Below, in pieces: positions 1,779 to 38,359 of a DNA stretch of 64,000 bases. The DNA is taken from assembly GCA_036517375.1 (NCBI GenBank), contig DATDWM010000017.1:3208-67207 (forward strand). The letters run 5' to 3'. Source of the stretch: Minisyncoccota bacterium. Its GTDB lineage: Bacteria > Patescibacteriota > Minisyncoccia > Phycocordibacterales > UBA9973. Positions within the stretch are counted from its first letter, which is position 1, and every line of letters starts with the position of its first letter. The notes under the pieces are model-generated. The model was not told the origin of the DNA, made no database searches, and saw only the letters and a program-made list of their open reading frames with translations. The position numbers and the translations under genes are program-made.

Positions 1779-2378
1779 ATGAAGAAAATTCTAGGACAAA
1801 AGGAAAAAGTCTTGAGAATGGTGGCAGTGGATGTGCCAATAGCAGAGATAAAAACACCAAAAATAAAGAAGGTGCTGAAGGAAATGTCGGATTCGTTAGC
1901 AAGCCAAGGTGACGGTGTCGCCATCGCTGCGCCCCAGATTGGATACTCGCTTCGAATTTTCGTTGTGTCTGGGAAAATATTTGAGGCGGGGTTTTCTAGG
2001 CGGGGTGTTTCGCAAGCTGAAGATCCGAGAGGTAGCGCTCCATTGGCAAATGAAGACAGCGACCCCGCCGGGGAAATGCCTCCCGTAAAAGATTTGGTTT
2101 TTATTAATCCTAAAATTTCCAAACTCTCCCGTGATAAAGAATGGCTCCAGGAAGGCTGCCTCTCTGTGCGTTGGCTATACGGGAAGACCCACCGATCTAA
2201 GAAAGCGATGATTACAGCCTATGACGAAAATGGTAAAAAATTCATCCGTGGAGGCTCGGGTTTACTGGCTCAAATTTTCCAGCACGAGACGGACCATTTA
2301 AACGGCATACTCTTCATTGACCACGCCAAGGAAATAAGGGAAGAATTACCCGCAAACGAAGAAGGAAAACCAAAATAA
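1779..2378 (+). CDS. def: Peptide deformylase, with ~35-aa GC-rich internal insertion
   Basis: GVAIAAPQIG, EGCLSV, HETDHLNG metal-binding motifs; extra low-complexity segment between motif 1 and 2. Confidence 0.85.
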   Translation: MKKILGQKEKVLRMVAVDVPIAEIKTPKIKKVLKEMSDSLASQGDGVAIAAPQIGYSLRIFVVSGKIFEAGFSRRGVSQAEDPRGSAPLANEDSDPAGEMPPVKDLVFINPKISKLSRDKEWLQEGCLSVRWLYGKTHRSKKAMITAYDENGKKFIRGGSGLLAQIFQHETDHLNGILFIDHAKEIREELPANEEGKPK

Positions 2379-2392: not shown

Positions 2393-3253
2393 ATGAATTA
2401 TAATTTTGCATACTTTGGTGGTGAACCTTTATCAGTCCCAACACTGGATAAATTACACGAACAAGGATTTATTCCCAGGCTTATTATAAGCAACCCCGAT
2501 AAACCAAAAGGAAGAAATTTAGAAATTACCTCTCCTCCAACAGCCATCTGGGCAAAGGAACACAACATTCCACTTATTCAGCCAGAGAGTAATGCTAAAC
2601 TTCTTTCTACTTTTTCGAGTGAGGAATTCGGCTTGGCCGTACGTAGCGAGAAAAAATTGGAAAAAATGAAATATGATTTCTTCATAGTAGTCTCTTACGG
2701 AAAAATAATTCCTAAAGAAATTCTAGATTTACCTAAATTAGGAACTATCAACATCCATCCGTCACTGCTTCCTAAATATCGAGGTCCTTCCCCCATCGTT
2801 TCACCTGTTTTAAATGGTGACTCTCAAACAGGGGTAACTATTATACAAATAGACGAAGAAATGGATCATGGTCCAATACTGGCGCAAGAGGAAATAAGTC
2901 TTAAGGGGGACGAAAATATTGGAGATTTAGAAAAGTCTTTAGCTCTATTAGGGGGAGAATTATTAATAAAAATTATTCCGGAATTTGTTGCGGGCAAAAT
3001 TAAGCCCATAGAACAAGACCACAGTAAGGCCACCTTTTGCAAAAAGATTAAAAAGGAAGACGGATTAATAGATTTAAATGATGAGGGAGTTAAAAACTAT
3101 AATAAATTTAGAGCCTACGCCACTTGGCCTAGAACTTTCCTATTCCGCGACGGCAAAAGAGTTATAATTACCGACGCAGTCCTAGAAGACGGTAAATTCG
3201 TCATCAAAAAAGTTATTCCCGAAGGTGGAAAAGAAGTGGATTATAAGAATTAG
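2393..3253 (+). CDS. fmt: Methionyl-tRNA formyltransferase
   Basis: Formyl transferase N-domain (INIHPSLLPKYRGPSPI); follows def as in the conserved def-fmt pair. Confidence 0.85.
   Translation: MNYNFAYFGGEPLSVPTLDKLHEQGFIPRLIISNPDKPKGRNLEITSPPTAIWAKEHNIPLIQPESNAKLLSTFSSEEFGLAVRSEKKLEKMKYDFFIVVSYGKIIPKEILDLPKLGTINIHPSLLPKYRGPSPIVSPVLNGDSQTGVTIIQIDEEMDHGPILAQEEISLKGDENIGDLEKSLALLGGELLIKIIPEFVAGKIKPIEQDHSKATFCKKIKKEDGLIDLNDEGVKNYNKFRAYATWPRTFLFRDGKRVIITDAVLEDGKFVIKKVIPEGGKEVDYKN
2611..2658. repeat. 48-bp GC-rich intragenic element, copy A (inside fmt, in frame)
   Basis: tttttcgagtgaggaattcggcttggccgtacgtagcgagaaaaaatt; about 45/48 identical to 37648-37695. Confidence 0.65.
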
Positions 3254-11969: not shown

Positions 11970-11992
11970 ATTACAAATATATCATACTTTTT

Positions 11993-12030
11993 AGAAATTA
12001 CTATAGTATGACTTGGCCGTAGTGGCACAG
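11993..12030. repeat. Left copy of 38-bp imperfect direct repeat flanking GC-rich insertion
   Basis: tagaaattactatagta exact 17-mer plus 16/21 following bases shared with 12996-13033; reverse complement encodes ...TTAKSYYSNF*. Confidence 0.7.
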
Positions 12031-12184
12031 ACCTACCGCTAGGTCTTGCCTAGCGGAGAAAAAATTTTTATCTTCACTTAAAATCAGATAGTTAAACGAA
12101 ACTCCCCGGATAAATCCGAGGAGAAATGAAAAGAGTTACGAACACCACCGAAGCGATAGTTCCGATTCACCAAGTCCTGAGGAC

Positions 12185-12811
12185 TTACTTACGGACACCA
12201 CCGAAGCGATAGCGCCGACGCCGCTGATAGGCGCACTGGTAAACGTACACCTCGCGCAAGTCGCCGTAGCGGTCGAACGAAGCGTAGCTAGCACTGCCGT
12301 TCTCCGAGAGATCCCACTGGCAACTATTAGGTCTCTCGGCCTTGTCGGCTCCGTTGACAGCACACTGCCAGTAAAAGTCCGGCACGAGATTTCGGAGTCC
12401 GTACTCGCGCGCGAGCTCCGTCGGTGTCGGATCGTAGTCGAGGTCGAAGAACCAGCCCTCGACCTCAACCACACCGTGCCCGGTCTTCGGTGCACGCTCG
12501 AGCACCTTGTCGTCAAGGTAACAGACAATCCGACCCATTGCGTCGAGTGCCTGTCGTTCCGTGCGGGTGTAATCCACCCGCGCCCGACGCGATATCATCT
12601 TCGCACGACGTTCCACGCGAGAGCGAAGACAGTTGAACATCTCCTCCACAAGCGCGTCACCTTCCTCTTCGAGCACCACCTGAACATCAGGGTGTGCGAG
12701 GGTTCCTCCGTCCTCACGGCACTTAGTCATGAACCAATCAGCTGCGCTGCTGGCCTGACCCATGTCCATGGGGACGAAGGAGACGGGGGCAACAACTTTT
12801 TTTTTAGTCAT
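12185..12811 (-). CDS. Hypothetical protein encoded in GC-rich foreign segment
   Basis: Sharp GC/codon-usage shift versus surroundings; AGGAG 9 nt upstream of ATG (MTKKKVVAPV); no recognisable domain. Confidence 0.5.
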   Translation of the reverse strand: MTKKKVVAPVSFVPMDMGQASSAADWFMTKCREDGGTLAHPDVQVVLEEEGDALVEEMFNCLRSRVERRAKMISRRARVDYTRTERQALDAMGRIVCYLDDKVLERAPKTGHGVVEVEGWFFDLDYDPTPTELAREYGLRNLVPDFYWQCAVNGADKAERPNSCQWDLSENGSASYASFDRYGDLREVYVYQCAYQRRRRYRFGGVRK

Positions 12812-12994
12812 CGGCGTCATCTCCTGGTTGTACCAATAGGGCTAAGTCCCTTTCGCCACAGCAGAAAAAATCCTTATCTAAAAGATACTCTCTGCTGTAG
12901 CGAATTTCACAAGTATTTAAAAGAGCATATATTTGCGCATTATACACCTTTTATGCTTAAAGGTCAATATTCTAAATACTCTTTATACTAAAGC

Positions 12995-14182
12995 CTAGAA
13001 ATTACTATAGTAGGATTTGGCGGTGGTGGTACAAATATCCTTATCGTTACCGCCCAATATCTTACAATATTCGAGCGCTTCTTTGTCGGAATGATAATAA
13101 GAAATTATTTCTTTAACTGCCCCGATCACGCAGTTGGTGATGTCATTTGGGTCAGTTGCCATCTCACACATTTCTTTTGTTTTTTGCTTCTCATGATGCG
13201 CTTGGTTGGCCACGTCTCGGCCCATGCTCTGGTTGCAGATATCCCGATACGGCTGCTCTACGGTGGCGCATAAGTCAAAGACTTTTTTATAATTAAATCC
13301 GGTAACCTGGAGCGCGTAAGAAGTCTGCCCTAGGTAACATTGACCTTTATATTTAGTATCCACCGCAGTACAAGGATATAGTGGCTCCGCGGGTTTCAAA
13401 TATTTTACTCCGTTTTTATGATCCGCTACATTGGTACTATCAATGATATTCTGCATGTACACCCCGCCATAACAAGACTCTTGCTCCCAGAAGCCAGTCA
13501 AGCTGTCGCACATTTTAAGTGAATCAAAAAGCTCATCTTTTAAAATTGCCATGATGCCGTGCCCTAGCCCATGCACGCAATTGTAATAATTAAAATTATA
13601 AGTATCTTTACCGGGAATATCAGCGCAGATAGTATTTAATTCTTTGGATAAATTTTCAAGCCCAATGTTCGCGATCATGCCTTCCATAATTCCATGATAA
13701 TATCCGCTCCAACAAAAAGAATCCCCGTTCGCAAATGCTTCGGAAATAGTTTTATAATTCCCTACCGCCTGCCTACCAATGACATGCATAAGCGGATGAC
13801 ACTGGGAGAGTATAGAGGAACTTTCCTGGGAACGTTTCTGTATATCAGCACTCGCAGTAGTCACGCCATAGTCTTTTACTAAAGTTTTATAATGATCTAC
13901 GTAACAGCCGTATAAAGCAGGCGAATTTTCACACAAATCAGCATCGTAAACATAGGGCACACCCTTCGCATTGATGGGATTATCCGCGAGGATCGATCTG
14001 CTTCTGGTTAAATTATTGGTCTCACCCATGGCTCGACTTAATACTTGGCTGTCCGGCTGGAAAACCATCGGGCTCGCATTCTCCTCCCCGGGATTTTGGA
14101 AATATTTCGCATATACTATTCCAAACCCTACCGCGAGCACCAGAAGAGCGATCAGTACTTTTACTATAGTTCCAGTTTTCAT
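12995..14182 (-). CDS. Secreted/anchored Cys-rich repeat protein, hypothetical
   Basis: N-terminal TM/signal segment; repeated Cys-Gly-His containing units (CVHGLGHG, CHPLMHVIG, CYGGVYMQ). Confidence 0.55.
   Translation of the reverse strand: MKTGTIVKVLIALLVLAVGFGIVYAKYFQNPGEENASPMVFQPDSQVLSRAMGETNNLTRSRSILADNPINAKGVPYVYDADLCENSPALYGCYVDHYKTLVKDYGVTTASADIQKRSQESSSILSQCHPLMHVIGRQAVGNYKTISEAFANGDSFCWSGYYHGIMEGMIANIGLENLSKELNTICADIPGKDTYNFNYYNCVHGLGHGIMAILKDELFDSLKMCDSLTGFWEQESCYGGVYMQNIIDSTNVADHKNGVKYLKPAEPLYPCTAVDTKYKGQCYLGQTSYALQVTGFNYKKVFDLCATVEQPYRDICNQSMGRDVANQAHHEKQKTKEMCEMATDPNDITNCVIGAVKEIISYYHSDKEALEYCKILGGNDKDICTTTAKSYYSNF
12996..13033. repeat. Right copy of 38-bp direct repeat (forms true 3' end of downstream gene)
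   Basis: Same 17-mer and similar extension; reverse complement encodes ...TTTAKSYYSNF*. Confidence 0.7.
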
Positions 14183-17782: not shown

Positions 17783-18043
17783 ATGGTAACTAAAAAAGAA
17801 ACTACTCTTTGGGGGGTACATAAAATGCCCGCGGATTTAAAAAAGTCCCTAATGTCTAACAGGGCGGCACAAGCCATATGGGAGGACATCACCCCACTCG
17901 CGCGCAATGAGTGGATCTGCTGGGTTATATCTGGGAAGCGGGCCGAAACGCGAAACATCCGTATAAAGAAAACAATCTCAAAGCTTAAAAGCGGGATGCG
18001 CCGACCGTGCTGCTGGACTGGCTGTATTCATCGCACCTTATAA
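17783..18043 (+). CDS. YdeI/OmpD-associated (OmdA) family protein
   Basis: WEDITPLARNEWICWV...KRAETRNIRIKKTISKL pattern of the family. Confidence 0.6.
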   Translation: MVTKKETTLWGVHKMPADLKKSLMSNRAAQAIWEDITPLARNEWICWVISGKRAETRNIRIKKTISKLKSGMRRPCCWTGCIHRTL

Positions 18044-18103
18044 TAACATCAGTAGTAAAAGATCACTGAAAATATTCCTAAAATAAAAAAAACCTGAAGG
18101 GGG

Positions 18104-18640
18104 TTATTTTTTCTTGTTTAAATCTTTCATCATCTCCGTCCCCCTGTGAAGTTGCACGGCATTAGTATTTTGTGATTGTCCATTGATATCAGACATTTCT
18201 TTTAGTGTTAAGTCCTGCTTATAACGCATAAACATTATCTTTTGATACTTTATTGGAAGTCGACGAATTAAAAGAAGTGCCATCTTGCCGTCTAACTTGT
18301 TTACAAGTTTTGGAATATCGTTTACCATTGGCTCAAAACCTTTTTTCATAAGTGAATCTAAAGATACTGGTTTATGCTTTCTGTATTGGTCTATAATCAG
18401 ATTGTTTAGGATGTGATATAGAAAAGCTTTCATTAGATCTATCTTGCCTCCTTTTACGAGATATTTCCATGTTTTAAGGAATGTATCTTGGACTAGATCT
18501 TCCCCTAGCATGTGGTCGCTGACCTTAAAAAAGGCGCGCTTATTAAGCCCAACCTCATAATCCTTATGAGCTTCAGTCAAAATCGCGTCTATTTTATTAG
18601 TCTGTTCCGGAGTCATTACAATAGTAAGCCGTATGGGCAA
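18104..18640 (-). CDS. ECF-type RNA polymerase sigma factor
   Basis: Region 2 (DLVQDTFLKTWK) and region 4 HTH (LTLKEMSDINGQSQNTNAVQLHRG). Confidence 0.8.
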   Translation of the reverse strand: MPIRLTIVMTPEQTNKIDAILTEAHKDYEVGLNKRAFFKVSDHMLGEDLVQDTFLKTWKYLVKGGKIDLMKAFLYHILNNLIIDQYRKHKPVSLDSLMKKGFEPMVNDIPKLVNKLDGKMALLLIRRLPIKYQKIMFMRYKQDLTLKEMSDINGQSQNTNAVQLHRGTEMMKDLNKKK

Positions 18641-18761
18641 GCATTATATTACAATGGAGTAGAAGGAACCTATATCTGATAGGTCTATCGATTAGATTGA
18701 TTATAGCATGTATTAGAATAAAAAGGGGTTGTAATAGTTTCCATCCTTAAACGGCTTAAGT

Positions 18762-19361
18762 TTGCATATGAAAAAAGACAAAACGGGCATGGAGCAAAAT
18801 ATTAAAAATAAGTGGTCTGGAGCTGACTTTATAAACCGGCTGGGTGAAGAAAGTTGGACATATATCAAAACAGTTGTGGACATAGTGCGAGAACCAATTT
18901 TGGTTCTCGATCAAGACCTGCGGATAATGGCTGCCAACGAACCTTTCTATCAAACTTTCCAAGTTGAGCAGAAAGATACAGAAAACAAAGTGGTATATGA
19001 ATTAGGAAATGGTCAATGGAACATCCCAGACTTACGGAAACTTTTAGAAAATATTTTACCGAAAAATACATTCTTTAAAGGTTTTGAGGTTACTCATGAC
19101 TTCCCTATTATTGGACGCAAGATAATGATATTGAACGCTCGTGAGATTCACTGTAAAGAAGACGCTGTCTTGGGTCCGTGTCCACCTATTATTCTTCTCG
19201 CAATAGAAGATGTTACGGAAATGATGGACGTTACTGAAATGCTTACTCGCCATACGAATCAATTTGAGACGACAATGGCAAAACGGACAGAAAAATTAGA
19301 AATACATATCAAAAAATTACAAGAAGAAATAAAACTACTTATTGATAGAGTTAAAATTTAG
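18762..19361 (+). CDS. PAS-domain protein (possible sensor/regulator)
   Basis: PILVLDQDLRIMAANEPFYQTF PAS-like core; divergent from ECF sigma gene. Confidence 0.5.
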   Translation: MHMKKDKTGMEQNIKNKWSGADFINRLGEESWTYIKTVVDIVREPILVLDQDLRIMAANEPFYQTFQVEQKDTENKVVYELGNGQWNIPDLRKLLENILPKNTFFKGFEVTHDFPIIGRKIMILNAREIHCKEDAVLGPCPPIILLAIEDVTEMMDVTEMLTRHTNQFETTMAKRTEKLEIHIKKLQEEIKLLIDRVKI

Positions 19362-19378
19362 TTTTTATTGATATCATC

Positions 19379-19409
19379 TGCTCCGAACTTGGGATGATGT
19401 TTGAATGAT
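19379..19409. repeat. Copy 1 of ~30-bp intergenic motif
   Basis: CTCCGAACTTGGGATGATGTTTGAATGA; shares consensus with copies at 20489 and 21204. Confidence 0.5.
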
Positions 19410-19460
19410 AATTCAACGACAAAATAAATATATCTACATACCTGATTTGAGAGATGCACA

Positions 19461-20039
19461 CTATATATAAAAAAATACGCTTTTAAGAAAACTATAAGCA
19501 TATACTGCGAGATATGCGAGGGAGATGTTAAATACAAAATTGCCCAACCCCAAAGGAATCATTACCCTCCAAAACGAATAGCGTGCTAAGCCCATTGAAA
19601 TAACAATAAAATCGTTTGAGAAAGGAACGAGTGAGCCGTAGATGAAAAAGGCAATCGGCAGTACTCTCGGACGAGCTAGACAAAAAGCGCAAAACTTTTT
19701 GAGGGTTTTTTGTATTCCCTGCGGAATTATAGCTCCGCCGCTATACCCAAGGTAATAAGAAGTTGAGTCGCCCACTATCACGCCGCTTGCAGCAGAAATA
19801 CCAACTAAAAGAGGATTCAGTCCGCCACTTGCCAACATTACAAGAACCACGTGATATGGTACGCCGCTAAAAGTTGACAAACCGCCAAGCAGGGCAAGGA
19901 CGAACATAAGTACATAGGCATTTTCTATCCCGATAATACGAATTATTTCTTCGGGTGAAGAATAATAGAAAAAAACCGTGGCTCCAATAAAAAGTAATAA
20001 CGGAGTTAAGCGTAAAATATACCAAGAGTTTATTTTCAT
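19461..20039 (-). CDS. DedA/TVP38-family membrane protein
   Basis: Multi-TM with VIVGDSTSYYLG motif typical of SNARE-associated/DedA family. Confidence 0.65.
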   Translation of the reverse strand: MKINSWYILRLTPLLLFIGATVFFYYSSPEEIIRIIGIENAYVLMFVLALLGGLSTFSGVPYHVVLVMLASGGLNPLLVGISAASGVIVGDSTSYYLGYSGGAIIPQGIQKTLKKFCAFCLARPRVLPIAFFIYGSLVPFSNDFIVISMGLARYSFWRVMIPLGLGNFVFNISLAYLAVYAYSFLKSVFFYI

Positions 20040-20389
20040 AAAGAGGGTTGAGGATGAGGTGGCACAACAATGCGTATAACCCTCGCCTCAACAAGACCTT
20101 CTTGATTGGTCGGTCCGACCACAATGACGAAATCGCCTACTTTTAATGGTTCCGTCCAGGTTCTTCTGCCCTTTCTTATGTCGGTATCTTGATTGGTCAA
20201 TATAAGCACTTCGGAACCCTCGTTGGTTTTTATCACGAAATTACCTTCCTTAACTTCAACAGCCTCGCCAAAATACTGCACTCGTGTCCAGTGAAAATAA
20301 GCTCGCATACCGCCAAGCGCTACAAAAATAGCAAATATGAATATGCTAATCAATAAATAAATTGTTTTTCGGGAGATTTTACGATTCAT
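20036..20389 (-). CDS. Membrane-anchored hypothetical protein
   Basis: N-terminal TM; 4-bp overlap with DedA gene suggests operon. Confidence 0.5.
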   Translation of the reverse strand: MNRKISRKTIYLLISIFIFAIFVALGGMRAYFHWTRVQYFGEAVEVKEGNFVIKTNEGSEVLILTNQDTDIRKGRRTWTEPLKVGDFVIVVGPTNQEGLVEARVIRIVVPPHPQPSL

Positions 20390-20488
20390 ATTTATATTGT
20401 ACTACTTTCTAACCCACGCCGCTATTTAAAAGTTCTAACCCCACGATAGGTATAAAAAATAACCATTATAAAATATGATTTAAAATTT

Positions 20489-20518
20489 GGCTCCGAACGT
20501 GGGAGGATGTTCGCAAGG
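20489..20518. repeat. Copy 2 of ~30-bp intergenic motif
   Basis: GGCTCCGAACGTGGGAGGATGTTCGCAAGG; contains CGAAC/GTTCG 5-bp inverted repeat. Confidence 0.5.
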
Positions 20519-20566
20519 CTATTATACAGGAAAATTAGGCTTAATTCCGTTATCCTGTATGGATTT

Positions 20567-20893
20567 TCACCCAAATACCAATACTTTATCCGAACTCTCC
20601 ACCATTTTGAGCAAGTCGGACATCGTGGAAACGGGGCAAACTTTGCTTTCTTCCTTTCCACGAACTTTAAGACAACTACCACAAGCATAAATCTCGCCTT
20701 TTAATTCTTTGAATTCCGACACCTTTTTTGAAATATCAAAATCTTTTGTATCGGGAATGATATCCAATTCTGAACCTTCGCTCATTAAAAAGATTTCTAC
20801 TTGATGTCCAGCTTTAAGCGAAGTAATTCCAAGGCGGAATGTATTCCATATATGTTCGGGTTTATTTGATTGTAAAATCATTCCTAGTTTCAT
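20567..20893 (-). CDS. DsrE/DsrF-like family protein
   Basis: ~108 aa, conserved Cys (ACGSC) and fold-typical hydrophobic pattern. Confidence 0.45.
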   Translation of the reverse strand: MKLGMILQSNKPEHIWNTFRLGITSLKAGHQVEIFLMSEGSELDIIPDTKDFDISKKVSEFKELKGEIYACGSCLKVRGKEESKVCPVSTMSDLLKMVESSDKVLVFG

Positions 20894-20899
20894 AGTAGC

Positions 20900-21142
20900 T
20901 TAACTTAAATCTTTCTTCTTTTCTTCAAACTCTTTCTTATCAATTTCGCCTTTAGCATATCTTTCCTTTAAAATATCCAGAGCCTTTTTACTACTGTCCA
21001 TCCCGTTTGCCTTGCTATTACGGACAAGCCAAACAATAAAATAAATAACCGCTACCCAAAATAAAAGCATCATAATTCCACCTCCGAACCAGCCCATCAT
21101 ATTACCCCAACTCCCAAAACCATCATATATTCCATACATCAT
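20900..21142 (-). CDS. SHOCT-domain membrane protein
   Basis: TM helix followed by [31 protein letters not shown]-like tail. Confidence 0.6.
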
Positions 21143-21203
21143 AGTTTTTATAGTTAATATTAATAATTTTTATTTCTATAACATTTTATCATAAGAAGTC
21201 ACT

Positions 21204-21232
21204 GGCTCAAACTTGAAATGATATTCGTAAGG
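21204..21232. repeat. Copy 3 of ~30-bp intergenic motif
   Basis: GGCTCAAACTTGAAATGATATTCGTAAGG. Confidence 0.45.
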
Positions 21233-21252
21233 TAATAATTAATAATCCATAA

Positions 21253-21918
21253 CTATTTTTCGTCAATAACTCCAATTGATTGCTCATACAGTTTTTCTGT
21301 CTGTGAAAACATCCAGTTGATAAATTTTAGTACTTTTGGATGAAACTCGCAAAGGTTGAAATTGAAGTTAGACAGCAATAGAATCAAGTGACTCCCAACC
21401 CAACTCGTAGAACCTCCTTCTAGGCTTAGAAGTACTTCTTTGTGCAAGCTTTCATCCTCTCCACGTGGGTAATCAACAGACCGATGAGATGCCCATTTGT
21501 TAGAAAGGACATTTACCATTCCTTCTTTATCCACAACTGAATCCCATATCTCTTTTAACTCTAAATCTTTTGGAGGATTTAATTTTAAGGATTTAATAAA
21601 AAAACTAGCACGCCTTAATTGACAAAGGTATGCTTGTACCTCGAACTTTATATTTGCTTGTGATTTTTTAATTTCTGCCCATTCTTCATCTGTATGAAAT
21701 CTGTTTACATATAATGATGGAACTCCTTTTTCTTCTAATTTCCTAAAATTGGCAAAATGATATTCTAAAGCCTCAGGTAGAACTCTTTGAAAAGTTAAGA
21801 TTTGAAAGTTTTTTAAGCCTTGCCATTTTTTCTTATCAGCAATATTTTTCTCACGCGATTGTACTGGAACAAAAGTACTTATAAGAATTCTTTTAGAAGA
21901 GTTGTTATTTTTTGACAT
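21253..21918 (-). CDS. Hypothetical protein, 3rd gene of NTPase operon
   Basis: Co-directional, 38-bp gap to upstream gene; no recognisable domain. Confidence 0.5.
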   Translation of the reverse strand: MSKNNNSSKRILISTFVPVQSREKNIADKKKWQGLKNFQILTFQRVLPEALEYHFANFRKLEEKGVPSLYVNRFHTDEEWAEIKKSQANIKFEVQAYLCQLRRASFFIKSLKLNPPKDLELKEIWDSVVDKEGMVNVLSNKWASHRSVDYPRGEDESLHKEVLLSLEGGSTSWVGSHLILLLSNFNFNLCEFHPKVLKFINWMFSQTEKLYEQSIGVIDEK

Positions 21919-21956
21919 ATAGATTTGAGTTTATTTTTTGATTCATAATATTTAGA

Positions 21957-23474
21957 CTATCTGGGGATTTTAGACACTTCAAAAATAAAACGTTTACGTC
22001 TTGTGTCTTCAGGCTTATACTCCCACCCTGTGCCATATCTATCTATTTTACTTTTATCTAGGTCTCCACAGGTTATAAGTCTTAATTTATTTTTTCTTAA
22101 AAATGTTTTAAGATACTTACCTTTAATAACTAAAACACTACCGTGGTCTGCCAAATGATGTTTATCCTCTCCATAGTTACTAACACTTGATACAAAGCCA
22201 TTTTGCCAATTTATAGTTTTAATCACTAATTCATTTTTACTAGTATAGTATTCCAGTGTCCCTTTGCGTTGTTTTAATTTAAGCTGTTCAACTATTTCTG
22301 GTGCAGGAAAGACAGGATTAAAAATATCGCCAAAATTTGTTTCTGAAATTATTCCGTAAGCAGGAAACAACTTACCATTTAGTTCTGTTCTATTGTGGTC
22401 AGAAACAAATAATTTCTTACTTTTATAAGCAAATATTGGAACTTCATCAATTAAACAGTTGTTACAACTATAAGAAGGCGGGAAAACTTCTTTTTTATCA
22501 TTTATTTTATTTAAATTTTCTGTCGTAAAACCGCTAAAAGTCTTACGGGAGAGCAATTTATCTTCAAAACGAATGCGTGTGTCCTCATATAACACAACCC
22601 ACGGCTGGTTTAAACCTGTTAGATTATAGATGTTCTTCCTCTTTAATTTGTCTTTCAACCAAAATTCTGTTTTTACCTTAATATTCTCGAATTTTATAAA
22701 ATCTGGTCTATCGGTAATCAAGTCCTCAACCCACACTGGTTCATAATTATAATTCTCCTGTAAAAACTCCCTCCAGCGAGATTCTTCGACTGGTAAGTTT
22801 TTTATACACCACATTAGAAAAGTTTGTATCCCGTGATAGGCACAATAATGCAATTTAGTTTTATAGGACTCATTTCTGGAGTAACCCCGATTCCACCTAG
22901 TAGGTACATCTTCCCAGTATTTTTTACCCTTTCGATAACCAAGCACCTTCATATTCTGCAACAATTTCTTGTAACCTTTTTTGCCCGCATATTTAAATGT
23001 ATTGCATATGTTATCAAGCTTATATTTGTAGTCACCCCCTCCTAGGGTGTACTCTACGAAATGTTCAGAACTATATCGATACCAATCTTGCTGGGTATCG
23101 GGAGTAAACTGTGTGGGGGTAACTAATTTAAGAGACTCCGCAAATATATTCTTAGCAGAAGATTTAAAATTACTTAGATTTTCCAAGATATTTTTTGATA
23201 AATAAGCAATCTTGAAATGGTTACAGCGTTTTGCAGTTTTTAAGATACTTTCTTTGATGGAAAGTATTCTTTCGGGAGCCTTGTAGCTAAGACGAAATAA
23301 AACTTTTAGAGAGTTCTCGACTATATCTAGGTTCTCAGAAAGTAGATTTTTCCTTAGTTCATTAATGGTTTTTTCATTAATTAGAGCATTTTCATATAGT
23401 GCTTTTTCTGCACTACCTCTCCATTTAAAAGGGGCAACACCGAGATATTTAGATATAAATTGTAAGGATTTCAT
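21957..23474 (-). CDS. Hypothetical protein, 2nd gene of NTPase operon
   Basis: Starts 4 bp after stop of 1578-aa gene; no recognisable domain. Confidence 0.5.
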   Translation of the reverse strand: MKSLQFISKYLGVAPFKWRGSAEKALYENALINEKTINELRKNLLSENLDIVENSLKVLFRLSYKAPERILSIKESILKTAKRCNHFKIAYLSKNILENLSNFKSSAKNIFAESLKLVTPTQFTPDTQQDWYRYSSEHFVEYTLGGGDYKYKLDNICNTFKYAGKKGYKKLLQNMKVLGYRKGKKYWEDVPTRWNRGYSRNESYKTKLHYCAYHGIQTFLMWCIKNLPVEESRWREFLQENYNYEPVWVEDLITDRPDFIKFENIKVKTEFWLKDKLKRKNIYNLTGLNQPWVVLYEDTRIRFEDKLLSRKTFSGFTTENLNKINDKKEVFPPSYSCNNCLIDEVPIFAYKSKKLFVSDHNRTELNGKLFPAYGIISETNFGDIFNPVFPAPEIVEQLKLKQRKGTLEYYTSKNELVIKTINWQNGFVSSVSNYGEDKHHLADHGSVLVIKGKYLKTFLRKNKLRLITCGDLDKSKIDRYGTGWEYKPEDTRRKRFIFEVSKIPR

Positions 23475-23478
23475 AGTA

Positions 23479-26400
23479 TTATGCTTTTGTTAAAGATAAC
23501 CGCATAGATTCTTCGACCGTTTCTTTTAGAGGATGGAAAGCATACTTCTTCAATTCAGGAAAAAAAGAATCTATAACGTCTGAGGTTCTGACTAATAAAT
23601 AATTCAAATAATAACTACTTTCTGATGACTTATAAATAGAGAGACGGATAACTTTTTTTAGAAATTCCTTTTTATTTTCAAATTCCATTTGTGCTAGCTT
23701 ATTAACAAGCTCTGGAAGATTGTATGGATATTCTTGGTTGTTGCAAAAATCCAAAATGTCCCCCTTAATCTCCTTAAGGTAAGCTTTGTCCTTATTTTTT
23801 ACAGACAAATCAAGTAGTGAACATAGAATATTGTAGGTAAGAAATTCAACGTTATTTTCTTTACACCACAGTTTTACCTTGCTAATAATTTTAAGGTCAG
23901 AGTTTGAAACAATCTCTAGTATTAAACCATCAATTTTATATTTTTTATCTTCCTTAATAAAAGAATCTAGTAATCCAGTTATCTTTTTCATAGACCTGTT
24001 CCGTGCAAAAGATTTAGCCTGTTTAATGACTGCTAGCGGTATTAACTCTGAGTTAGGGGTAGTTGGTATCACTGAATATCCGTCAAGTTCTAATTGGGCG
24101 ATATACTTCTTTATATCCCCATACTCTCTTTTTAAATCATTCTTTTGTTTTATAAACGTTACTAATTCATTTAATAGGGTTAATCTTGCCCCAACATATA
24201 CATATCTACGCAAGTAAATACAATATCTACTTAAAAATAATCTGGCGTTAGGAATATCATTATTTTTTAGAGAGTGGTCAATCAAGGCGTAGTAAATAGC
24301 TTTGATATTTGGTTGTTCTCGGTCAGTCTCTTCATCAAATCTTACTAAACCTAGCAATGGCATTAGTTCTGGAGCAATAGTTTGATATTTATACCTATCA
24401 AGACTAGCCAGAATTACTTTTTTTAACCCCTCATTCAAATTAACTTCTCCTTTGTTTGTCAGTTCTATTAGATAATCAAGACCTAATTCATAATTTGAAT
24501 ATGCAACTGATTCTATAAAACCTAATTTATAATACCAGCTACCCTCAACAACACTACTGATTTTATCGATATATTTAAGAATGGTTTCAAAATCATCTTT
24601 TTTATTTTGAGTTCTAAGACAGTCAATTAAATTCAAAATTCTCAAATCCTCTTTTGCCCATAAGCCACGAGAATATTTAAGAGAATGCTTATAGATATTC
24701 TCTGCTGATTCTCTATAACCCTTACTATTTACTGTTCTTGCTAATTCCTTCAGACCATCACTTTTTGCAAAATTATCTTGCTTTTCTTTGGTTTTAAATT
24801 CAAGTATCTTTTTTTGGTATAACACTACCTTTGATACTAAGGCGGGGGTGATTGGCAACAGTTCATCGAAGGTGGTCTCTAATAAACTTTGATTTTTCTC
24901 TAAGATTGTATTTTTGAAAACCGATTCGACGACATCAACAAAAGATTCTAATTTTTTAGGAAAATACTTAGCTACAGTATTCAAACAAATCCCTACGAAT
25001 GAAGTTGCATTTTGATAGTAGACAAAAGCTGTTTTCTCAAAAGGAGATTCTCTTAGTTGTTTATACTCACTAACTTGTGAAATTTCCTTTTTAAATACAC
25101 TAAGACTTTCCATAATAAAATGGTTTAATCTTTTCCAGTCCATTTTTTTATTTTTTACAAAAAGAATATTACGGTAAAGCAATATGTAGGTTGAAACTAT
25201 GTTAGCGAAAGCATCATTCTCATAGTCCTTAAAATGTTCTTTATGATATTTTTTCTGGGCATCAATGAGAAATTCCTTCGGATTAAAATTTTTAGTAACA
25301 ATACTTAACAAAGCGGTTCTTCGGAGGAATAACCCCTTGCCGTTTATTCCCCAGTTAGAATACATATCTCTGTGATAAGGTGGCTCAAAGTCAACTCCAG
25401 AAATTAATTTAGATATGGAAGATTTTGATTCGCTTGTGTTTAACAAATATGAGACTTCGGCTATATCTAGTTTCTGATTTATATATCGGTCGTTGATTAA
25501 ATATTTGAATAACTGATACTGTTTAATAAGAGTTTTGAGTTTCTTTTTGGCAGTAGTATCTTTTTTCTCTATATAAAGATACGCATAGGTTATGAGCTGT
25601 ATTGCCTTGGATTGCCTATTTATAAAATGTAACACTGCCTTTTTTTCTTTTGGGTATTGAACTCTATTCAACTTTATTAACATACTAGCTCGGAATCCCA
25701 CTGTATAAGGTTTAGGCTCTTTAAAACGAATATTTTCAATATATCTTACAGCTCCATCGTATCTACCTAAGTTAATACAAGCTTCTAAATACTCTACGAT
25801 ATTATCCCAGTACATATCCGTATTACCATTTTCCATCATTTTTCTATCCCAAAGAATATCTTTATTAAAAGAAATACGAGCTAATCCATCTTCTAAAAAT
25901 CGAAGGGCTAAATTTTTAGAAGGACTGTCTTCTCTGGTATATAAAAAATTACCCAATCTAATTCGCTTCATTACCCATTCTCTTAAATTGTACAGAGATT
26001 GGTTTTGTAATACATCAAGTTCAGCCTCAACTTCTTTAAGAAGGTTCGGTGTACCGATACTGCTTTTCAGAAAAGTATCGTCATCGGACATCCGAGCAGG
26101 ACTTAAATTACTAATCTTAACTGAATATTTAATAAAATTCTCTAAATCATTTTTTGCATCAAAGTATTTTGTAAAATAATGTAAAGATTCAATTTTTGAA
26201 CCATAATCTAGTTTAGAATCAAAAATTGTTTGAATGAAATTATTTTGAATTAACTTCTTTGTAATTTGCTTAGTAAACGGGTCAGAACTGCCAATTACCC
26301 GCAAATGATTAGTTAAGTATTTTTTCGGATAGGCTAATTTGAGATTACCTTTAGTTGAATAGAATCTTATTATTTTTCGGTTATATTCTTTCTGAACACT

Positions 26401-28215
26401 TGTTAGTTTATTACGAATGAATCTTCTAAAACTATCGTGGTATGGTTCGATATATCCTCCACGCAAGTTCACGAAGGGACTTATTTTTTCGTTAAGGTCA
26501 TTAAAATTCTCTAACTTAATTTTCGCTACCTTATAGAGTGTGTCTCTTTGGATTTCAGCAAAATGAAAACTTAGACAACCAAGACAGTGTTTCTGTCTTG
26601 TGTTCAGGCTGTCCCAGATGGGTTTATACCAATCGAAGACTTCTTTATAATCTTCTTTGCTGTCTATAATGCTGTCATAGTCTTTTCTTGAAATCTTTTT
26701 TAACTTTTGTGTTAAATAAAAAATAGAAATAGCCAACCCTTTCGTTTTTTTAGATATTTTTCTTAATTGGTCAATAGTTAGATTAATTTCCGCATTTTTA
26801 AAATATTCTTTTATTTCATTCTCGCTAAATGACAAACTAATAGAAATCTTTCTAGAAGTTTTGTCTGGAAGGTTTTTTATCTGTTGCGGAAGATATTCTT
26901 TTGTCCAAGTACTTAACAAAAAGACTACGCCAGCATATTGAATTGAAGGTATGGCATTTAGGATAGACTTATCTTTGTAGTTGTCAGTTTCTACTTGGTC
27001 TAAAGCGTCTACAATTATTACAATTTTTTTATCCTTACGTTTTAATGCTGATTCGCTTACTTGATTTAATGTTTTCTCAAACATTTTATTTATAAATTCT
27101 TCATTATCCTTAAGGCTGACAGTTTCTTTTGTAAGTCCCAAGTCAAAAAAGCGTTGAATCAGGTCAACCTTAAACCACATACTACTTAAACGTTCTTTCT
27201 CATAATTTAAATTCGAGTCAATTTTCTCAAAAGGTCTAATACGACAAAGGTAGGGTAAAAAATCAGCGTTGGTTTGTGTAAGCTTTGAGAGTAAGACTGT
27301 TTTCCCCGAACCAGAGGGGGCAAAAAGGAAAACGAAACCACCTTTCTTTTTTTGTTTATTTACAGCTTTAAGTATCTCAACTTCAACCGCTTTTCTTTGA
27401 ATGTAATTTTTAGGAGTATTTATCTCGTGAACTAAACTCGTTTTAATAATTTCAATCAATCCAAGTACATCCGCCTTTCTAATGATAGTTTCTTTTTGAG
27501 TAAATTTTTTAAAGGTTCTACTTATAAAAGCATCAACTCTATCATTATCAGAAATGCCAAGAAGCCCTAATTCTTTTTTGAGTTTGGATTCTATGCCGTC
27601 ATTGTCTGTGGAAATTTGAAATTCAAAAGATTTTATAAAAGCTTCTAGTTCGCCACGCTTTAGACGAGTTTTAGTGAAATTAGATTTAATGTTTAAAAGT
27701 TCCGTTTTATATTTATCACTAAATTTACTCCAAGTTATCTTTTTCTGATTCAACTTTTTTATATCACTAAGAAACTTCTTCAAGTCTGACCCAAGTGGTT
27801 TGTTGCTAGCAAGAATTAACTTAACTTTATTCTTTTGTCCTTTATGAAATCTCCAAGCTTTAAGGAATTTAAAAATTACAGTTCCTTCGTACTTAGAATT
27901 TTTCTTAGCACTTTTTTTCTTGGCAGTTTCCTTGGATTCCCATAGACCACTATAAGTCCAACTACTGCTTACTACATCAGTGTACTTAAGTTGAATGACT
28001 TCAATGGACTTATCTTCAAAAAATCGGGTTATGTCCTCTATACGTCTTTTTGCTCCTCCTTTCCTGTCTGGTTTGATTTCGACATAAGAAAGCTTACTAT
28101 CGGTCTTTATTAATTTTGTAAACTCTAGAGCAGAAAAAACCTTTTCGAAGTACTGAGAAGTATCTTCGTTTCGATTTAGTATATGACTTTTGGATGTCTT
28201 CTTTTTTCCTTTCAT
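23479..28215 (-). CDS. Giant (1578 aa) P-loop NTPase, STAND/AVAST-like candidate defence protein
   Basis: Walker A GGFVFLFAPSGSGKTVLLSK (~aa 297), Walker B KIVIIVDALDQVE (~aa 400), >1100-aa helical C-terminal region, N-terminal region with PD..QLK (PD-(D/E)xK-like) pattern. Confidence 0.6.
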   Translation of the reverse strand: MKGKKKTSKSHILNRNEDTSQYFEKVFSALEFTKLIKTDSKLSYVEIKPDRKGGAKRRIEDITRFFEDKSIEVIQLKYTDVVSSSWTYSGLWESKETAKKKSAKKNSKYEGTVIFKFLKAWRFHKGQKNKVKLILASNKPLGSDLKKFLSDIKKLNQKKITWSKFSDKYKTELLNIKSNFTKTRLKRGELEAFIKSFEFQISTDNDGIESKLKKELGLLGISDNDRVDAFISRTFKKFTQKETIIRKADVLGLIEIIKTSLVHEINTPKNYIQRKAVEVEILKAVNKQKKKGGFVFLFAPSGSGKTVLLSKLTQTNADFLPYLCRIRPFEKIDSNLNYEKERLSSMWFKVDLIQRFFDLGLTKETVSLKDNEEFINKMFEKTLNQVSESALKRKDKKIVIIVDALDQVETDNYKDKSILNAIPSIQYAGVVFLLSTWTKEYLPQQIKNLPDKTSRKISISLSFSENEIKEYFKNAEINLTIDQLRKISKKTKGLAISIFYLTQKLKKISRKDYDSIIDSKEDYKEVFDWYKPIWDSLNTRQKHCLGCLSFHFAEIQRDTLYKVAKIKLENFNDLNEKISPFVNLRGGYIEPYHDSFRRFIRNKLTSVQKEYNRKIIRFYSTKGNLKLAYPKKYLTNHLRVIGSSDPFTKQITKKLIQNNFIQTIFDSKLDYGSKIESLHYFTKYFDAKNDLENFIKYSVKISNLSPARMSDDDTFLKSSIGTPNLLKEVEAELDVLQNQSLYNLREWVMKRIRLGNFLYTREDSPSKNLALRFLEDGLARISFNKDILWDRKMMENGNTDMYWDNIVEYLEACINLGRYDGAVRYIENIRFKEPKPYTVGFRASMLIKLNRVQYPKEKKAVLHFINRQSKAIQLITYAYLYIEKKDTTAKKKLKTLIKQYQLFKYLINDRYINQKLDIAEVSYLLNTSESKSSISKLISGVDFEPPYHRDMYSNWGINGKGLFLRRTALLSIVTKNFNPKEFLIDAQKKYHKEHFKDYENDAFANIVSTYILLYRNILFVKNKKMDWKRLNHFIMESLSVFKKEISQVSEYKQLRESPFEKTAFVYYQNATSFVGICLNTVAKYFPKKLESFVDVVESVFKNTILEKNQSLLETTFDELLPITPALVSKVVLYQKKILEFKTKEKQDNFAKSDGLKELARTVNSKGYRESAENIYKHSLKYSRGLWAKEDLRILNLIDCLRTQNKKDDFETILKYIDKISSVVEGSWYYKLGFIESVAYSNYELGLDYLIELTNKGEVNLNEGLKKVILASLDRYKYQTIAPELMPLLGLVRFDEETDREQPNIKAIYYALIDHSLKNNDIPNARLFLSRYCIYLRRYVYVGARLTLLNELVTFIKQKNDLKREYGDIKKYIAQLELDGYSVIPTTPNSELIPLAVIKQAKSFARNRSMKKITGLLDSFIKEDKKYKIDGLILEIVSNSDLKIISKVKLWCKENNVEFLTYNILCSLLDLSVKNKDKAYLKEIKGDILDFCNNQEYPYNLPELVNKLAQMEFENKKEFLKKVIRLSIYKSSESSYYLNYLLVRTSDVIDSFFPELKKYAFHPLKETVEESMRLSLTKA

Positions 28216-28396
28216 TTATAGGCACATATTAACATTTTGCCCAGAAAAGAACCAAAGATAAACATCTGGGCTTTAGAGTTTCCAACATTCATCCAGAATG
28301 CCTATTTAATGGGGTAAAATGCCCCCTTCCTCTTTGGTATGTGAGGTTTTGAACAATGGTATAATTAGAGTAGCTTTTGAAAAATAAGCTCATTAA

Positions 28397-28831: not shown

Positions 28832-28840
28832 AGAAAGTAT

Positions 28841-29305: not shown

Positions 29306-29308
29306 ATG

Positions 29309-31202: not shown

Positions 31203-31230
31203 AAACACCCTATGTTGGTGTTTTTATTTT
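31203..31230 (+). terminator. Terminator-like hairpin + T-run in non-coding stretch
   Basis: AAACACC-ctatgtt-GGTGTTT followed by TTATTTT. Confidence 0.3.
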
Positions 31231-35087: not shown

Positions 35088-35564
35088 TTACAAACTTAAA
35101 CGTACCCGATCCCCCACTTTAATATTATTTTTATCCGAAAATCCAGACTCTACTTCTAGTACATACTTAGAGTTTTCTCTGGGACCATAAGTTTCCAGTT
35201 GCTTTTCCGACTGTGGCTCGGCACCTTTTTTGATATAAATTATTTCCAAATTCTCATCTATCCAAATTATATCAATGGCAAATTTCATATCCTTCATCCA
35301 GAAATAATGCTCGAACGAATTTTCAAAAACAAATAGCATCCCTCGGGATGCACCAAGCCCCTCTCTCCCTGAGAGGCCGAGTTGTTGTTCCTCTGCCGAG
35401 CGCGCAAGCTCTACTTCCACCTTACTTTCTCCTAGTCTCACGTATTTAATACTCTCTGGGCTCGCGAGATCTACACCGCTCGGCGCATAGTTAAGAAAAG
35501 AAAAAACAACTATTAGGAAAAATATAACGATAGCAAAGCTTTTCATCATTTTAGTGGTCGCCAT
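35088..35564 (-). CDS. DUF192-family protein
   Basis: GMLFVFE..FWMKDM..IDIIWIDENLEII..YVLEV..IKVGDRV pattern; N-terminal TM. Confidence 0.6.
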   Translation of the reverse strand: MATTKMMKSFAIVIFFLIVVFSFLNYAPSGVDLASPESIKYVRLGESKVEVELARSAEEQQLGLSGREGLGASRGMLFVFENSFEHYFWMKDMKFAIDIIWIDENLEIIYIKKGAEPQSEKQLETYGPRENSKYVLEVESGFSDKNNIKVGDRVRLSL

Positions 35565-37069: not shown

Positions 37070-38359
37070 TTACTTCTTCAAATACCCTTTTAAAAATCGC
37101 TCTTTTAGCTCATAGAAAGTGTCGTCTATGACAGCCTGGCGGATGTCCTTTACTAGGTTCACGATAAAGTAGAGGTTGTGAATGGAGGCCAGAGTGCCAG
37201 CCAGCATTTCCTTAGCATGAAAGAGGTGCGCGATGTAGGCCCGAGTGTAGTTAGTACAGCTATAACAGCCACAACCCTTTTCGATCGGAGTGAAATCACT
37301 TCTAAAAACCTTGTTCATAATTATGATCTTCCCCTCTTTAGTATAAATGGTGCCATTACGGCCCAGACGCGTCGGCGCCACACAGTCGAAGAGATCTACG
37401 CCATTCTCCACACCTTCAAATAAATCCTCGGGCTCGCCTATGCCAAGCAGATGCCGCGGCTTCCCCTCGGGCAGAATTTCATTTACCCATTTCACAGCAC
37501 TCGACATATCCTCCTTAGCAAAGGATCCGCCGATGCCATATCCATCAAAGTCTAAAGTTTTTAAAAACTCTGCGGATTTTTTCCTCAAATTTTCATCCCG
37601 CCCGCCTTGCACAATGCCGAAGAGGGCGGGAACGAAGCTTCCTCCGGTTTTTCTGAGTGAGGAATTCGGCTCGGCCGTACGTAGCGAGGAAAAATCGGAG
37701 GAAGCGGAAAGACGCTGGTGCTCAGCTAAGCTCCTCTCCGCCCAAGCGTGCGTACGATTGAGCGCCTCTTCCTGATATTTTAAATCTTCTGCTGGTGACG
37801 TACATTCGTCAAAAGCAAAAATTATATCCGCTCCCAGGTTGTGCTGAATTTGAATAGACTTCTCAGGAGTGATGTAATGAATAGAGCCGTCGAGATGCGA
37901 TTTGAAGGACACACCGTCCTGCCCTATTTTAGCCAAGCGTGGCGCAGCGCTATCATCAAAGCGTTCAGGTACCAAGAGCGATGGATCGATAATTTTTAAA
38001 ATTTTTGAAATATCTTTGCCGTAAGCTGCGCCTAAAGAGAAAACTTGGAACCCTCCAGAGTCCGTCATAGTGGGGCCAATATTTCCGTCCCCGCCACACC
38101 AGTTCATAAATTTACCAACGCCTCCAGCCTCTCTCACTAGTTCATCCCCAGGCTGTAAATATAAATGATAGGTATTGCCCAAAACGACTTCCGCGCCTAA
38201 GTCTCGAACCATGTCTGGAGTAAGAGATTTTACCGAAGACTTAGTTCCCACTGGAACAAAAGCCGGTGTATGAATAACTCCGTGTGGCGTCCGCAGAACC
38301 CCCGCACGGCCAAGACTACCTTTTAACTTTTTTTCTATTTCAAAAGAAAAATTTTCCAT
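37070..38359 (-). CDS. tgt: Queuine tRNA-ribosyltransferase with ~20-aa in-frame insertion
   Basis: FVPVGTKSSVKSL..LGNTYHL, zinc site CGCYSCTNYTRAYIAHL; extra segment relative to canonical Tgt between RS and ALFG. Confidence 0.85.
   Translation of the reverse strand: MENFSFEIEKKLKGSLGRAGVLRTPHGVIHTPAFVPVGTKSSVKSLTPDMVRDLGAEVVLGNTYHLYLQPGDELVREAGGVGKFMNWCGGDGNIGPTMTDSGGFQVFSLGAAYGKDISKILKIIDPSLLVPERFDDSAAPRLAKIGQDGVSFKSHLDGSIHYITPEKSIQIQHNLGADIIFAFDECTSPAEDLKYQEEALNRTHAWAERSLAEHQRLSASSDFSSLRTAEPNSSLRKTGGSFVPALFGIVQGGRDENLRKKSAEFLKTLDFDGYGIGGSFAKEDMSSAVKWVNEILPEGKPRHLLGIGEPEDLFEGVENGVDLFDCVAPTRLGRNGTIYTKEGKIIIMNKVFRSDFTPIEKGCGCYSCTNYTRAYIAHLFHAKEMLAGTLASIHNLYFIVNLVKDIRQAVIDDTFYELKERFLKGYLKK
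37648..37695. repeat. 48-bp GC-rich intragenic element, copy B (inside tgt, antisense to the gene, in frame)
   Basis: tttttctgagtgaggaattcggctcggccgtacgtagcgaggaaaaat flanked by 9-bp inverted repeat CTTCCTCCG/CGGAGGAAG. Confidence 0.65.

Follow-up and report, generated by a model that had tools for sequence, protein, structure and literature searches.

Two copies of a short palindromic sequence, here termed element A, were found inserted in frame in the genes fmt and tgt within a 64,000-nt stretch of contig DATDWM010000017.1 of a Minisyncoccota bacterium (the whole stretch is referred to below as the window). [quoted passage not shown] On the best reading of the data it represents one family of a larger hairpin superfamily that populates the genomes of Paceibacterota, a part of the candidate phyla radiation (CPR). 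By NCBI annotation the Tgt protein of the window belongs to Candidatus Paceibacterota, with close relatives among Nomurabacteria/Parcubacteria; the bacterium itself comes from aquifer groundwater (Rifle). The positions of the copies, their parts and all host sites are listed in Table 1.

The two copies in the window share a 34-nt core, GAGTGAGGAATTCGGCT[T/C]GGCCGTACGTAGCGAG, located at 2617-2650 and 37655-37688 and lying on the forward strand in both cases; the core match between the two sites was not reproduced in any of 100 shuffles. The initial annotation, made from the sequence alone, had described a near-identical element in frame in both genes, which is confirmed here. Translated in the gene frame the fmt core yields FSSEEFGLAVRSEKK, and the tgt core, read on the gene strand, yields SSLRTAEPNSSLRK. 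The palindromes GAATTC and CGTACG are present as described, and the extra residues estimated for the host proteins (about 13 in Fmt and about 20 in Tgt) were recovered in alignments to the PDB entries 4iqf (+13) and 4hsh (+20). Two dimensions had been underestimated: instead of 48 bp, the ungapped similarity between the copies runs over approximately 65 nt and the covariance-model unit over approximately 79 nt, with the 48-bp match as its centre, and the supposed 9-bp inverted repeat flanking the tgt copy is a perfect 18-bp inverted repeat (GCTTCCTCCGGTTTTTCT / AGGAAAAATCGGAGGAAGC) enclosing the core. With regard to folding, the forward strand of the tgt copy forms a strong RNA hairpin (-38.1 kcal/mol, z -4.75, compared with -27.5 kcal/mol for the gene strand) and is also significant when folded as DNA (z -3.5); in the fmt copy the same arms are decayed and the fold is no better than that of shuffles (z -0.28). 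The loop of the fmt copy is intact, as is the stem of the orthologous fmt copy in locus L001.

A search of the window with the covariance model, run with filters off, returned only these two clear copies. That number and one private base common to both would be compatible with chance similarity, a single fmt/tgt gene conversion, or an artefact of assembly or vector sequence. Such an origin is practically untenable and already refuted, given that no matches are expected by chance and that assemblies made independently, in several projects and from several sampling sites, contain the element within conserved genes, with the frame kept.

Once oriented on the core, all copies of element A align without gaps. 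The element is about 75-81 bp long, with approximately 79 nt being typical of the family. From 5' to 3' the element consists of a foot [A/G]CG[G/A]A[G/A]C, an outer stem of 9-11 bp, TTTTTTC, a 33-nt loop, GAAAAAA, the complement of the outer stem and a foot GCG[A/G]AG; the loop, GAG[C/A/T]GAGGAATTCGGCT[T/C]GGCCGTACGTAG[C/T/G]GAG, holds a CGGC/GCCG mini-hairpin. The outer stem changes in sequence between loci while its complementarity is kept: in a 20-sequence alignment 92.4% of the stem cells were paired and 14 of the 19 stem pairs were changed on both sides, values reached in none of 500 shuffles, and slid partners were paired at only 45-58%. Regarding one representative for each of 12 independent sites, the identity was 95% in the loop, 87-92% in the inner stem, approximately 54% in the feet, 44% in the variable stem and approximately 30% in the flanks. 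Identical outer stems (GCTTCTTTCGG) occur in tgt, leuS and one intergenic site, so that the arms move together with the rest of the element. Every copy is retrieved by the covariance model with a score of 83-100 bits. No match of the element at gathering threshold was found in Rfam 15 (the best was whalefall-1 with 18 bits against a cut-off of 37, and with partial overlap only).

A 25-nt core pattern was scanned over 185,579 species-representative genomes, and a slightly looser pattern over metagenomes. The genomes yielded two loci (L001 in fmt and L002 in tgt, each at the position occupied in the window) and the metagenomes 18, so that the suspicion that only the two copies of the window exist was answered by 20 further loci; in total, at least ten distinct coding sites and three intergenic sites are occupied, the host identities having been checked with Pfam where needed. 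Viral contigs contained no match to the core pattern, and a phage vector is unsupported. A concatenated five-frame peptide query against a database of 5.8 billion proteins returned one marginal match, and a flank-padded peptide profile returned two matches only, both in new hosts; such short peptide queries cannot yield a host census. Groundwater metagenomes, that of Hainich among them, are the source of the other loci. In ENA, L001 and L002 are labelled 'Saccharibacteria', which fits poorly with the similarity of their Tgt and Fmt proteins.

The host frame is kept at all of the approximately ten independent coding sites, each copy having a length divisible by three and no stop codon in that frame; the probability that about ten independent insert lengths are all multiples of three is approximately (1/3)^10. 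Four reading frames and both orientations are used, and the resulting peptides are unrelated; in the cysteine desulfurase the element was even found in opposite orientations at one single site among the loci. On these short contigs any relation of orientation to strand composition or gene direction is confounded by coding-strand bias. The hairpin families are unusually rich in open frames: the master sequence of A and type D each have five of six frames open (P approximately 0.004 each) and an intergenic variant has four (P 0.011), compared with averages of 1.3-2.3 of six in shuffles of the hairpin families. Removal from RNA or protein (intron, intein, splicing or translational bypass) was considered and rejected on the sequences; since every coding copy keeps the host frame and is free of stops, removal at the RNA level is ruled out as a general rule.

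The insert in Tgt lies between the helix ending in WAERSLAEH and the barrel strand ALFGIVQGG, where the Zymomonas mobilis enzyme (4hsh) lacks the additional residues. In an AlphaFold model based on a 40-sequence alignment, residues 223-239 have a predicted local distance difference test score (pLDDT) below 50 and form coil without secondary structure, flanked by a confident helix (193-219) and strand (245-250). In a TIM barrel the N-terminal end of a strand lies on the face opposite the active site, which would place the Tgt insert on that face. The insert in Fmt is located in the connection ahead of the Rossmann-fold beta-strand FFIVVSYG. The encoded peptide is thus predicted to be a disordered, tolerated surface loop that is translated with the host protein. 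Tgt also carries an insertion of about 30 residues relative to the Z. mobilis enzyme at residues 101-146 (approximately nt 37922-38059; pLDDT 28-38), which is clade-wide and, unlike site 1, conserved among Paceibacterota orthologues.

Selection might instead act on the inserted peptides as protein modules, such as extensions with which Fmt and Tgt bind tRNA, and the similarity of their DNA would then be due to domain shuffling; several hosts do handle tRNA (Fmt, Tgt, PheT and LeuS), and the Fmt peptide is identical across six genomes. This explanation is very improbable and already contradicted by the unrelated peptides read in four frames and both orientations, by the copies in intergenic DNA and in UvrC, a PilC-like protein, DUF192 and a desulfurase, by the conservation at synonymous sites and by the predicted disorder of the peptide.

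Element A is accompanied by relatives with other loops. Element B, a second, GC-rich hairpin family, is inserted in frame in def (1779-2378), whose product exceeds the Pfam profile by about 33 residues. Its relatives occur at Tgt site 1 in L018, L032 and approximately 27 Tgt orthologues, in both orientations, and the insert type ALPLGSSACETPR found at this site is element B read on the opposite strand. Variant A' (L002:4527-4614) and a member at L016:900-977 have the feet and the TTTTTC/GAAAAA inner stem in common with element A and differ in their loops; in A' the loop edges CGAGG...CGTAGNGAG are kept and the apical mini-hairpin CGGC/GCCG is swapped for CCCAG/CTGGG. At L016 two different members are arranged back to back between convergent genes. 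All six element types examined are long-stem hairpins with loops of 30-60 nt, five of them folding clearly better than shuffles, and the types other than A have lengths of 78-111 nt. Within the window a generic hairpin scan indicated a modest excess (13 vs about 7.5), and a peptide scan found none of the other insert types of the Tgt hotspot elsewhere in the window.

Two long-stem hairpins of the window are possibly further members of the superfamily: one at 12852-12904, with TTCGC...GCGAA feet like those of element A, a 16-bp stem and a 21-nt loop, and one at 34308-34407, between a tRNA gene and the RNase P RNA, with a 16-bp stem (CCTCCTCTTTTTGTCG) and a GC-rich loop of 68 nt. A weak covariance-model match (22 bits) at 31594-31663 on the forward strand, at the end of a small open reading frame (ORF), has the feet GCGAA.../...GCGGAAGC and an unrelated short loop. 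Extra lineage-specific in-frame segments were also seen in the Fmt of L001 (QTPSASCASPEASARRAGHSPFAGGEKQDE, region L001:3083-3283) and, just upstream of element A, in the Tgt of L002 (KKQKQSQANGDVVKQDIPEHDFVSASQG), which suggests additional element families or tandem insertions.

Sites with and without an insert were found among related genomes, so that the element is not the ancient conserved sequence that had been named as the alternative to a lineage-specific insertion. The Fmt segment comprises 55 residues in the window, compared with 40-43 in relatives (150 representatives), most of which lack the insert. At Tgt site 2, two codons separate CYxC and YTRAY in the window and in L002, and 27 codons in L018, where the whole hairpin including both arms (net +75 nt) occupies a site without an A-run. 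In DUF192, element A (P0002/L023) or variant A' (L002) lies just 5' of the SFA codons in relatives; the gene of the window (35088-35564) begins with MATTKMMKSFAIV, and the P0002 counterpart has MIGFTSFNFFSLRTAKPNSSLEKIKRSFALT. Tgt site 1 was surveyed in 120 orthologues, 73-82% identical to the protein of the window: 19 of 118 have a short, ancestral-type linker (LEEHQKLNKENKIS) of the same length as in Escherichia coli and Z. mobilis, and approximately 99 carry inserts of at least eight types, some of them in tandem. Proteins that are 95-97% identical outside the insert may differ in its type (P0007 with A' vs P0016 with B) or in being filled or empty (P0035 with D vs P0101), and P0034 and P0052 carry element B in opposite orientations. 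Nearest neighbours had a common insert type in only 19 of 91 cases, the chance expectation being 9.3. In two such pairs compared at the DNA level, the genes are about 92% identical and the insert site is replaced outright, in one of them an 18-nt linker being opposed to a 90-nt hairpin.

Among the residues conserved in three genomes, identical codons were more frequent inside the element than outside it, both in fmt (12/15 vs 33/127, p 7e-5) and in tgt (8/11 vs 68/283, p 0.001). Because these codons are identical although the compared proteins have diverged (overall identity of 57% for Fmt and 70% for Tgt), either the nucleotides are constrained, or else gene conversion or the recency of the insertions keeps the copies similar. 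The T in GAGTGAG is private to both copies of the window, other genomes having C or A, and loop haplotypes group by sample (L003 with L018, L005 with L007); these two observations hint, if faintly, that gene conversion may homogenise the loops between the copies of one genome.

The mismatches in the stem reveal which strand folds. With one representative per independent site, 14 G·T and no A·C mismatches were counted on the core strand over nine columns (p 1e-4); relative to the host mRNA, the same mismatches amount to 12 A·C and one G·U, so that the folded strand is not the host mRNA. The hairpin is optimised on the element's own strand regardless of the direction of the host gene. This asymmetry argues against selection on host mRNA structure and favours a strand-specific single-stranded intermediate, which would more probably be single-stranded DNA than a transcript of its own. 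Alternatively, the asymmetry could reflect a mutation process whose strand bias follows the orientation of the element.

As a mobile hairpin, element A would land in intergenic as well as coding DNA and spread within and between related genomes. The copies surviving in genes would be those with a length divisible by three that entered permissive surface loops and are open in one of the many stop-free frames, and these would pass through transcription and translation as part of the host gene, ending up as a disordered loop of its protein. The element would be recognised or propagated as the single-stranded hairpin of one particular strand, a mode of recognition under which the loop would be preserved in sequence and the stem in its pairing only. 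Mobility via a single-stranded DNA intermediate, with either an HUH/Y1-type enzyme or template switching as the agent, is what we infer.

Several observations weigh against this interpretation. At the Tgt hotspot the filled alleles replace the ancestral linker and are not mere additions to it, and over the 20-40 nt beside the insert divergence exceeds the average of the gene. Because of this replacement and divergence, part of the pattern seen at the hotspot could be due to homologous recombination exchanging alleles, and the replacement-type alleles leave room for homologous recombination and in-place turnover. The same observations could be taken to mean that the hairpins arise and are exchanged in place without any transposition, by template switching at A-rich linkers, with homologous recombination or gene conversion, among strains as well as among copies, shuffling the resulting 'cassettes' at a small number of hypervariable loops. 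Some host linkers, GAAAATAAAATTAGT being one, are similar to the 3' arm GAAAAAATTAGT, the DUF192 arm beside SFA looks homologous to the host sequence of the empty allele, and a private variant is common to both copies of the window. An origin in place is nevertheless unlikely: the hairpin at Tgt site 2 is new sequence with both arms and arose where there is no A-run, the outer stems GCTTCTTTCGG are identical across unrelated genes, and the A-rich resemblances may be low-complexity matches. Formation of the stem from duplicated host flank was rejected as a general rule on the first two of these grounds.

Conservation of the loop in vertically inherited copies (fmt, six genomes) is likewise unexpected for passive junk and needs gene conversion or function. 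The hairpin could thus be a functional single-stranded motif used by the host, such as a small RNA or a priming, regulatory or protein-binding site in single-stranded DNA, with a recognised loop and dispersal by recruitment. Such a role would suit the 95% conserved loop and covarying stem, the constraint on synonymous sites, the strict strand asymmetry of the mismatches and the loop edges CGAGG...CGTAGNGAG retained in A' while its apical mini-hairpin was replaced. It is given a low probability here: Rfam contains no match, the majority of copies run antisense to the host gene and would require a promoter of their own, and the fmt copy of the window has been retained though its stem is lost. 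Moreover, no individual copy is needed, because families with unrelated loops are interchangeable at the same sites and these sites are empty in many close relatives.

The mobile-hairpin interpretation has further points to meet. Over the DNA covered here, the density is only about one copy per 20-30 kb. A mobilising enzyme was not identified, and none was found in the window. The Nomurabacteria genome of L027, a locus without element A, encodes a Y1_Tnp protein and has an empty Tgt site 1; no element-like hairpins lie beside that gene, and the window and the other loci contain no homologue of it, so that a Y1 transposase as the partner of the hairpins is unsupported by these loci. Copy-specific target-site duplications, which had looked attractive at DUF192, uvrC and the tgt of L028, are not supported, as the feet match no better within copies (3.58 of 7) than between copies (3.70 of 7).

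The Y1_Tnp gene in question (L027:6139-6798, reverse strand) is solitary, of the IS200/RAYT-type HUH class with the motifs LMPNHFHIL and YIHLNP, and lies between housekeeping genes. The recombinase content of the window is limited to a large serine recombinase in an apparent integrated element. A related autonomous insertion sequence (IS) with matching ends was not seen in approximately 210 kb of sequence, wider collections not having been searched for one. At the insertion sites themselves, direct repeats AGCTTCGCT flank the DUF192 copy of L002, the empty allele has AGCTTTGCT, and no target-site duplication was found at Tgt site 2 of L018. The GCGAAGC-like direct-repeat feet could be either the ends of the element or a preferred target, and a motif similar to the feet occurs at the right place in the empty DUF192 allele. 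A more far-reaching form of the mobile-hairpin interpretation, possible but rather doubtful, is that a previously unrecognised class of single-stranded DNA hairpins is actively moving in Paceibacterota, using the loop as the module recognised by an enzyme and preferentially re-targeting sites at which a hairpin or a GCGAAGC-like motif is present beforehand, and thereby making cassette-like hypervariable loops in essential enzymes, such as the Tgt hotspot.

Among known systems, the RPEs come closest. The families RPE-1 to RPE-10 (Ogata et al. 2000, 2002; summarised in PMC10969869 and PMC1779305) are 100-150 bp in length and occur in coding and intergenic DNA, including in-frame insertions in housekeeping genes such as PheT (PMC1779305, PMC10969869). 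The Rickettsia-like behaviour suggested by the initial annotation is supported insofar as element A is palindromic, present in coding and intergenic DNA of a small-genome bacterium, in frame and translated, one of several families and without a known transposase; PheT is a host in both systems, and both occupy tolerated surface positions. It differs in its length (approximately 79 nt for family A and 75-111 nt for all types), in its host phylum, in the combination of a near-invariant loop with a variable stem, and in the use of four frames and both orientations. Insertions of RPE-1 encode one conserved peptide. The turnover of the Tgt loop between near-identical proteins is also much faster than the largely vertical pattern of RPEs. 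A sequence relationship is not evident, the RPE consensus sequences not having been compared. Common descent is very unlikely because the host belongs to Paceibacterota, and given the different phylum, the smaller size and the lack of a known sequence relationship, element A is not regarded as an RPE.

Bacterial MITEs with intragenic in-frame copies include ERIC, BOX, Correia, QMITE1 of Coxiella and the Anabaena MITEs (reviewed in PMC10969869). Element A resembles them in being small, non-autonomous and dispersed, with inverted repeats, RNA or DNA hairpins and occasional in-frame fusions. The definition of MITEs, however, calls for target-site duplications and for terminal inverted repeats that are conserved and correspond to those of a parent IS, whereas the outer stem of element A is 44% identical and its loop 95%, with only TTTTTTC/GAAAAAA and the 7-nt feet in common. 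Repetitive extragenic palindromes (REPs) and the REPINs composed of them are extragenic hairpins with short loops, conserved arms and a conserved GTAG at the 5' foot. Likenesses to the REP/REPIN systems with their REP-associated tyrosine transposases (RAYTs) and to IS200/IS605 are the hairpin as the recognised unit, strand-specific folding, covarying stems and an apparent lack of target duplication. One related Nomurabacteria genome does contain a Y1_Tnp gene, though no physical or co-occurrence link to the elements was found. Unlike REPs, the copies of element A are mostly intragenic, the GTAG lies inside the loop (CGTAGCGAG) and not at the foot, and the arms are variable.

Palindromes or hairpins within coding sequences are also known from mitochondria, namely those of Nematomorpha (PMC6649704) and the repetitive hairpin-forming elements of sponges (PMC2800124). 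In common with element A, they are embedded in and translated with essential genes, structure and frame being kept together. They are organellar, and those of Nematomorpha lack a shared mobile core and code for conserved protein regions in both arms, whereas the shared loop of element A travels between unrelated genes. No prior description from CPR, Patescibacteria or Parcubacteria was found in the open-access literature, and the hairpin elements are apparently undescribed in this phylum.

Table 1. Location of hairpin elements, their parts and host sites in the window and at the other loci
Feature	Position or locus	Strand or orientation	Remarks
Element A, fmt copy	2594..2672	+	Sense to gene; reads ...LLSTFSSEEFGLAVRSEKKLEKM...; covariance model 82.7 bits, E 1e-19
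Parts of fmt copy	Loop 2617-2649; inner stem 2610-2616 / 2650-2656; outer arms 2599-2609 / 2657-2667		Outer arms decayed
Element A, tgt copy	37632..37710	+	Antisense to gene; reads ...SASSDFSSLRTAEPNSSLRKTGGS...; covariance model 93.8 bits
Parts of tgt copy	5' arm 37637-37654; loop 37655-37687; 3' arm 37688-37705		Feet ACGAA / GGAAA
fmt (methionyl-tRNA formyltransferase)	2393..3253	+	Pfam Formyl_trans_N/C; host of copy 1
tgt (tRNA-guanine transglycosylase)	37070..38359	-	Host of copy 2 at site 1
Element B	1983..2085		In frame in def; reads RRGVSQAEDPRGSAPLANEDSDPAGEMP
Empty tgt site 2	37250..37255	-	Codons TN between CYSC and YTRAY
Empty DUF192 N-terminal site	35532..35540	-	AGC TTT GCT = SFA
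Host fmt	Window, L001, L004, L009, L014, L019	Sense to gene	
Host tgt, site 1	Window, L002, L008, L028	Antisense to gene	
Host tgt, site 2	L018	Antisense to gene	
Host PheT	L003	Antisense to gene	
Host LeuS	L013	Antisense to gene	
Host UvrC	L012	Antisense to gene	RNase-H-like domain junction
Host UvrC	P0003	Antisense to gene	After GIY-YIG
Host class-V aminotransferase/desulfurase	L006/L015/L017	Sense to gene	Aminotran_5
Host class-V aminotransferase/desulfurase	L007/L010	Antisense to gene	Same site
Host T2SS-F/PilC-like protein	L011	Sense to gene	N-terminus; second frame
Host DUF192	P0002/L023	Antisense to gene	N-terminus
Intergenic	L005, L016, L020		Directly beyond gene 3' ends

Elsewhere in the window, the region 18000-34000 is of low GC content (31-36%) and encodes a packaging protein resembling phage gp3 (28397-28831) as well as a large serine recombinase (32176-33876), whose gene ends inside or beside a tRNA gene (33865-33936, reverse strand); it is probably an integrated phage or mobile element. 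Within it, a LOOT RNA (RF03000; 81 bits, well above the gathering score) was detected on the reverse strand at 30231-30351, overlapping the start of the ORF 29309-30322. The tRNA genes at 33865-33936 and 34084-34156 lie just upstream of a bacterial RNase P RNA of class A (34618-34976, forward strand), whose score lies right at the threshold (100.2 vs 100), which suggests that this CPR version is reduced or divergent. Direct repeats of 38 nt, 87% identical and 1004 nt apart, were found at 11992-13033 around an unusually GC-rich segment (12181-12798; up to 70% GC in 40-nt windows) with ORFs without a Pfam match.

The genomes of CPR/Patescibacteria are tiny and strongly reduced, yet several families of selfish hairpins appear to reside inside their core translation and repair genes. 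If this interpretation is true, protein-coding palindromes would extend beyond Rickettsiales and organelles, and part of the puzzling lineage-specific insertions in CPR proteins would be explained. For CPR proteins, gene calling, alignment and structure prediction can all be led astray by the inserts, and their polymorphism would provide markers for the strain-level population genetics of uncultured bacteria. The finding would also point to a mobilisation mechanism acting on one strand of a hairpin and, should the hairpins indeed form a class moving as single-stranded DNA, to a natural system by which coding sequences repeatedly receive short hairpins that can be translated.

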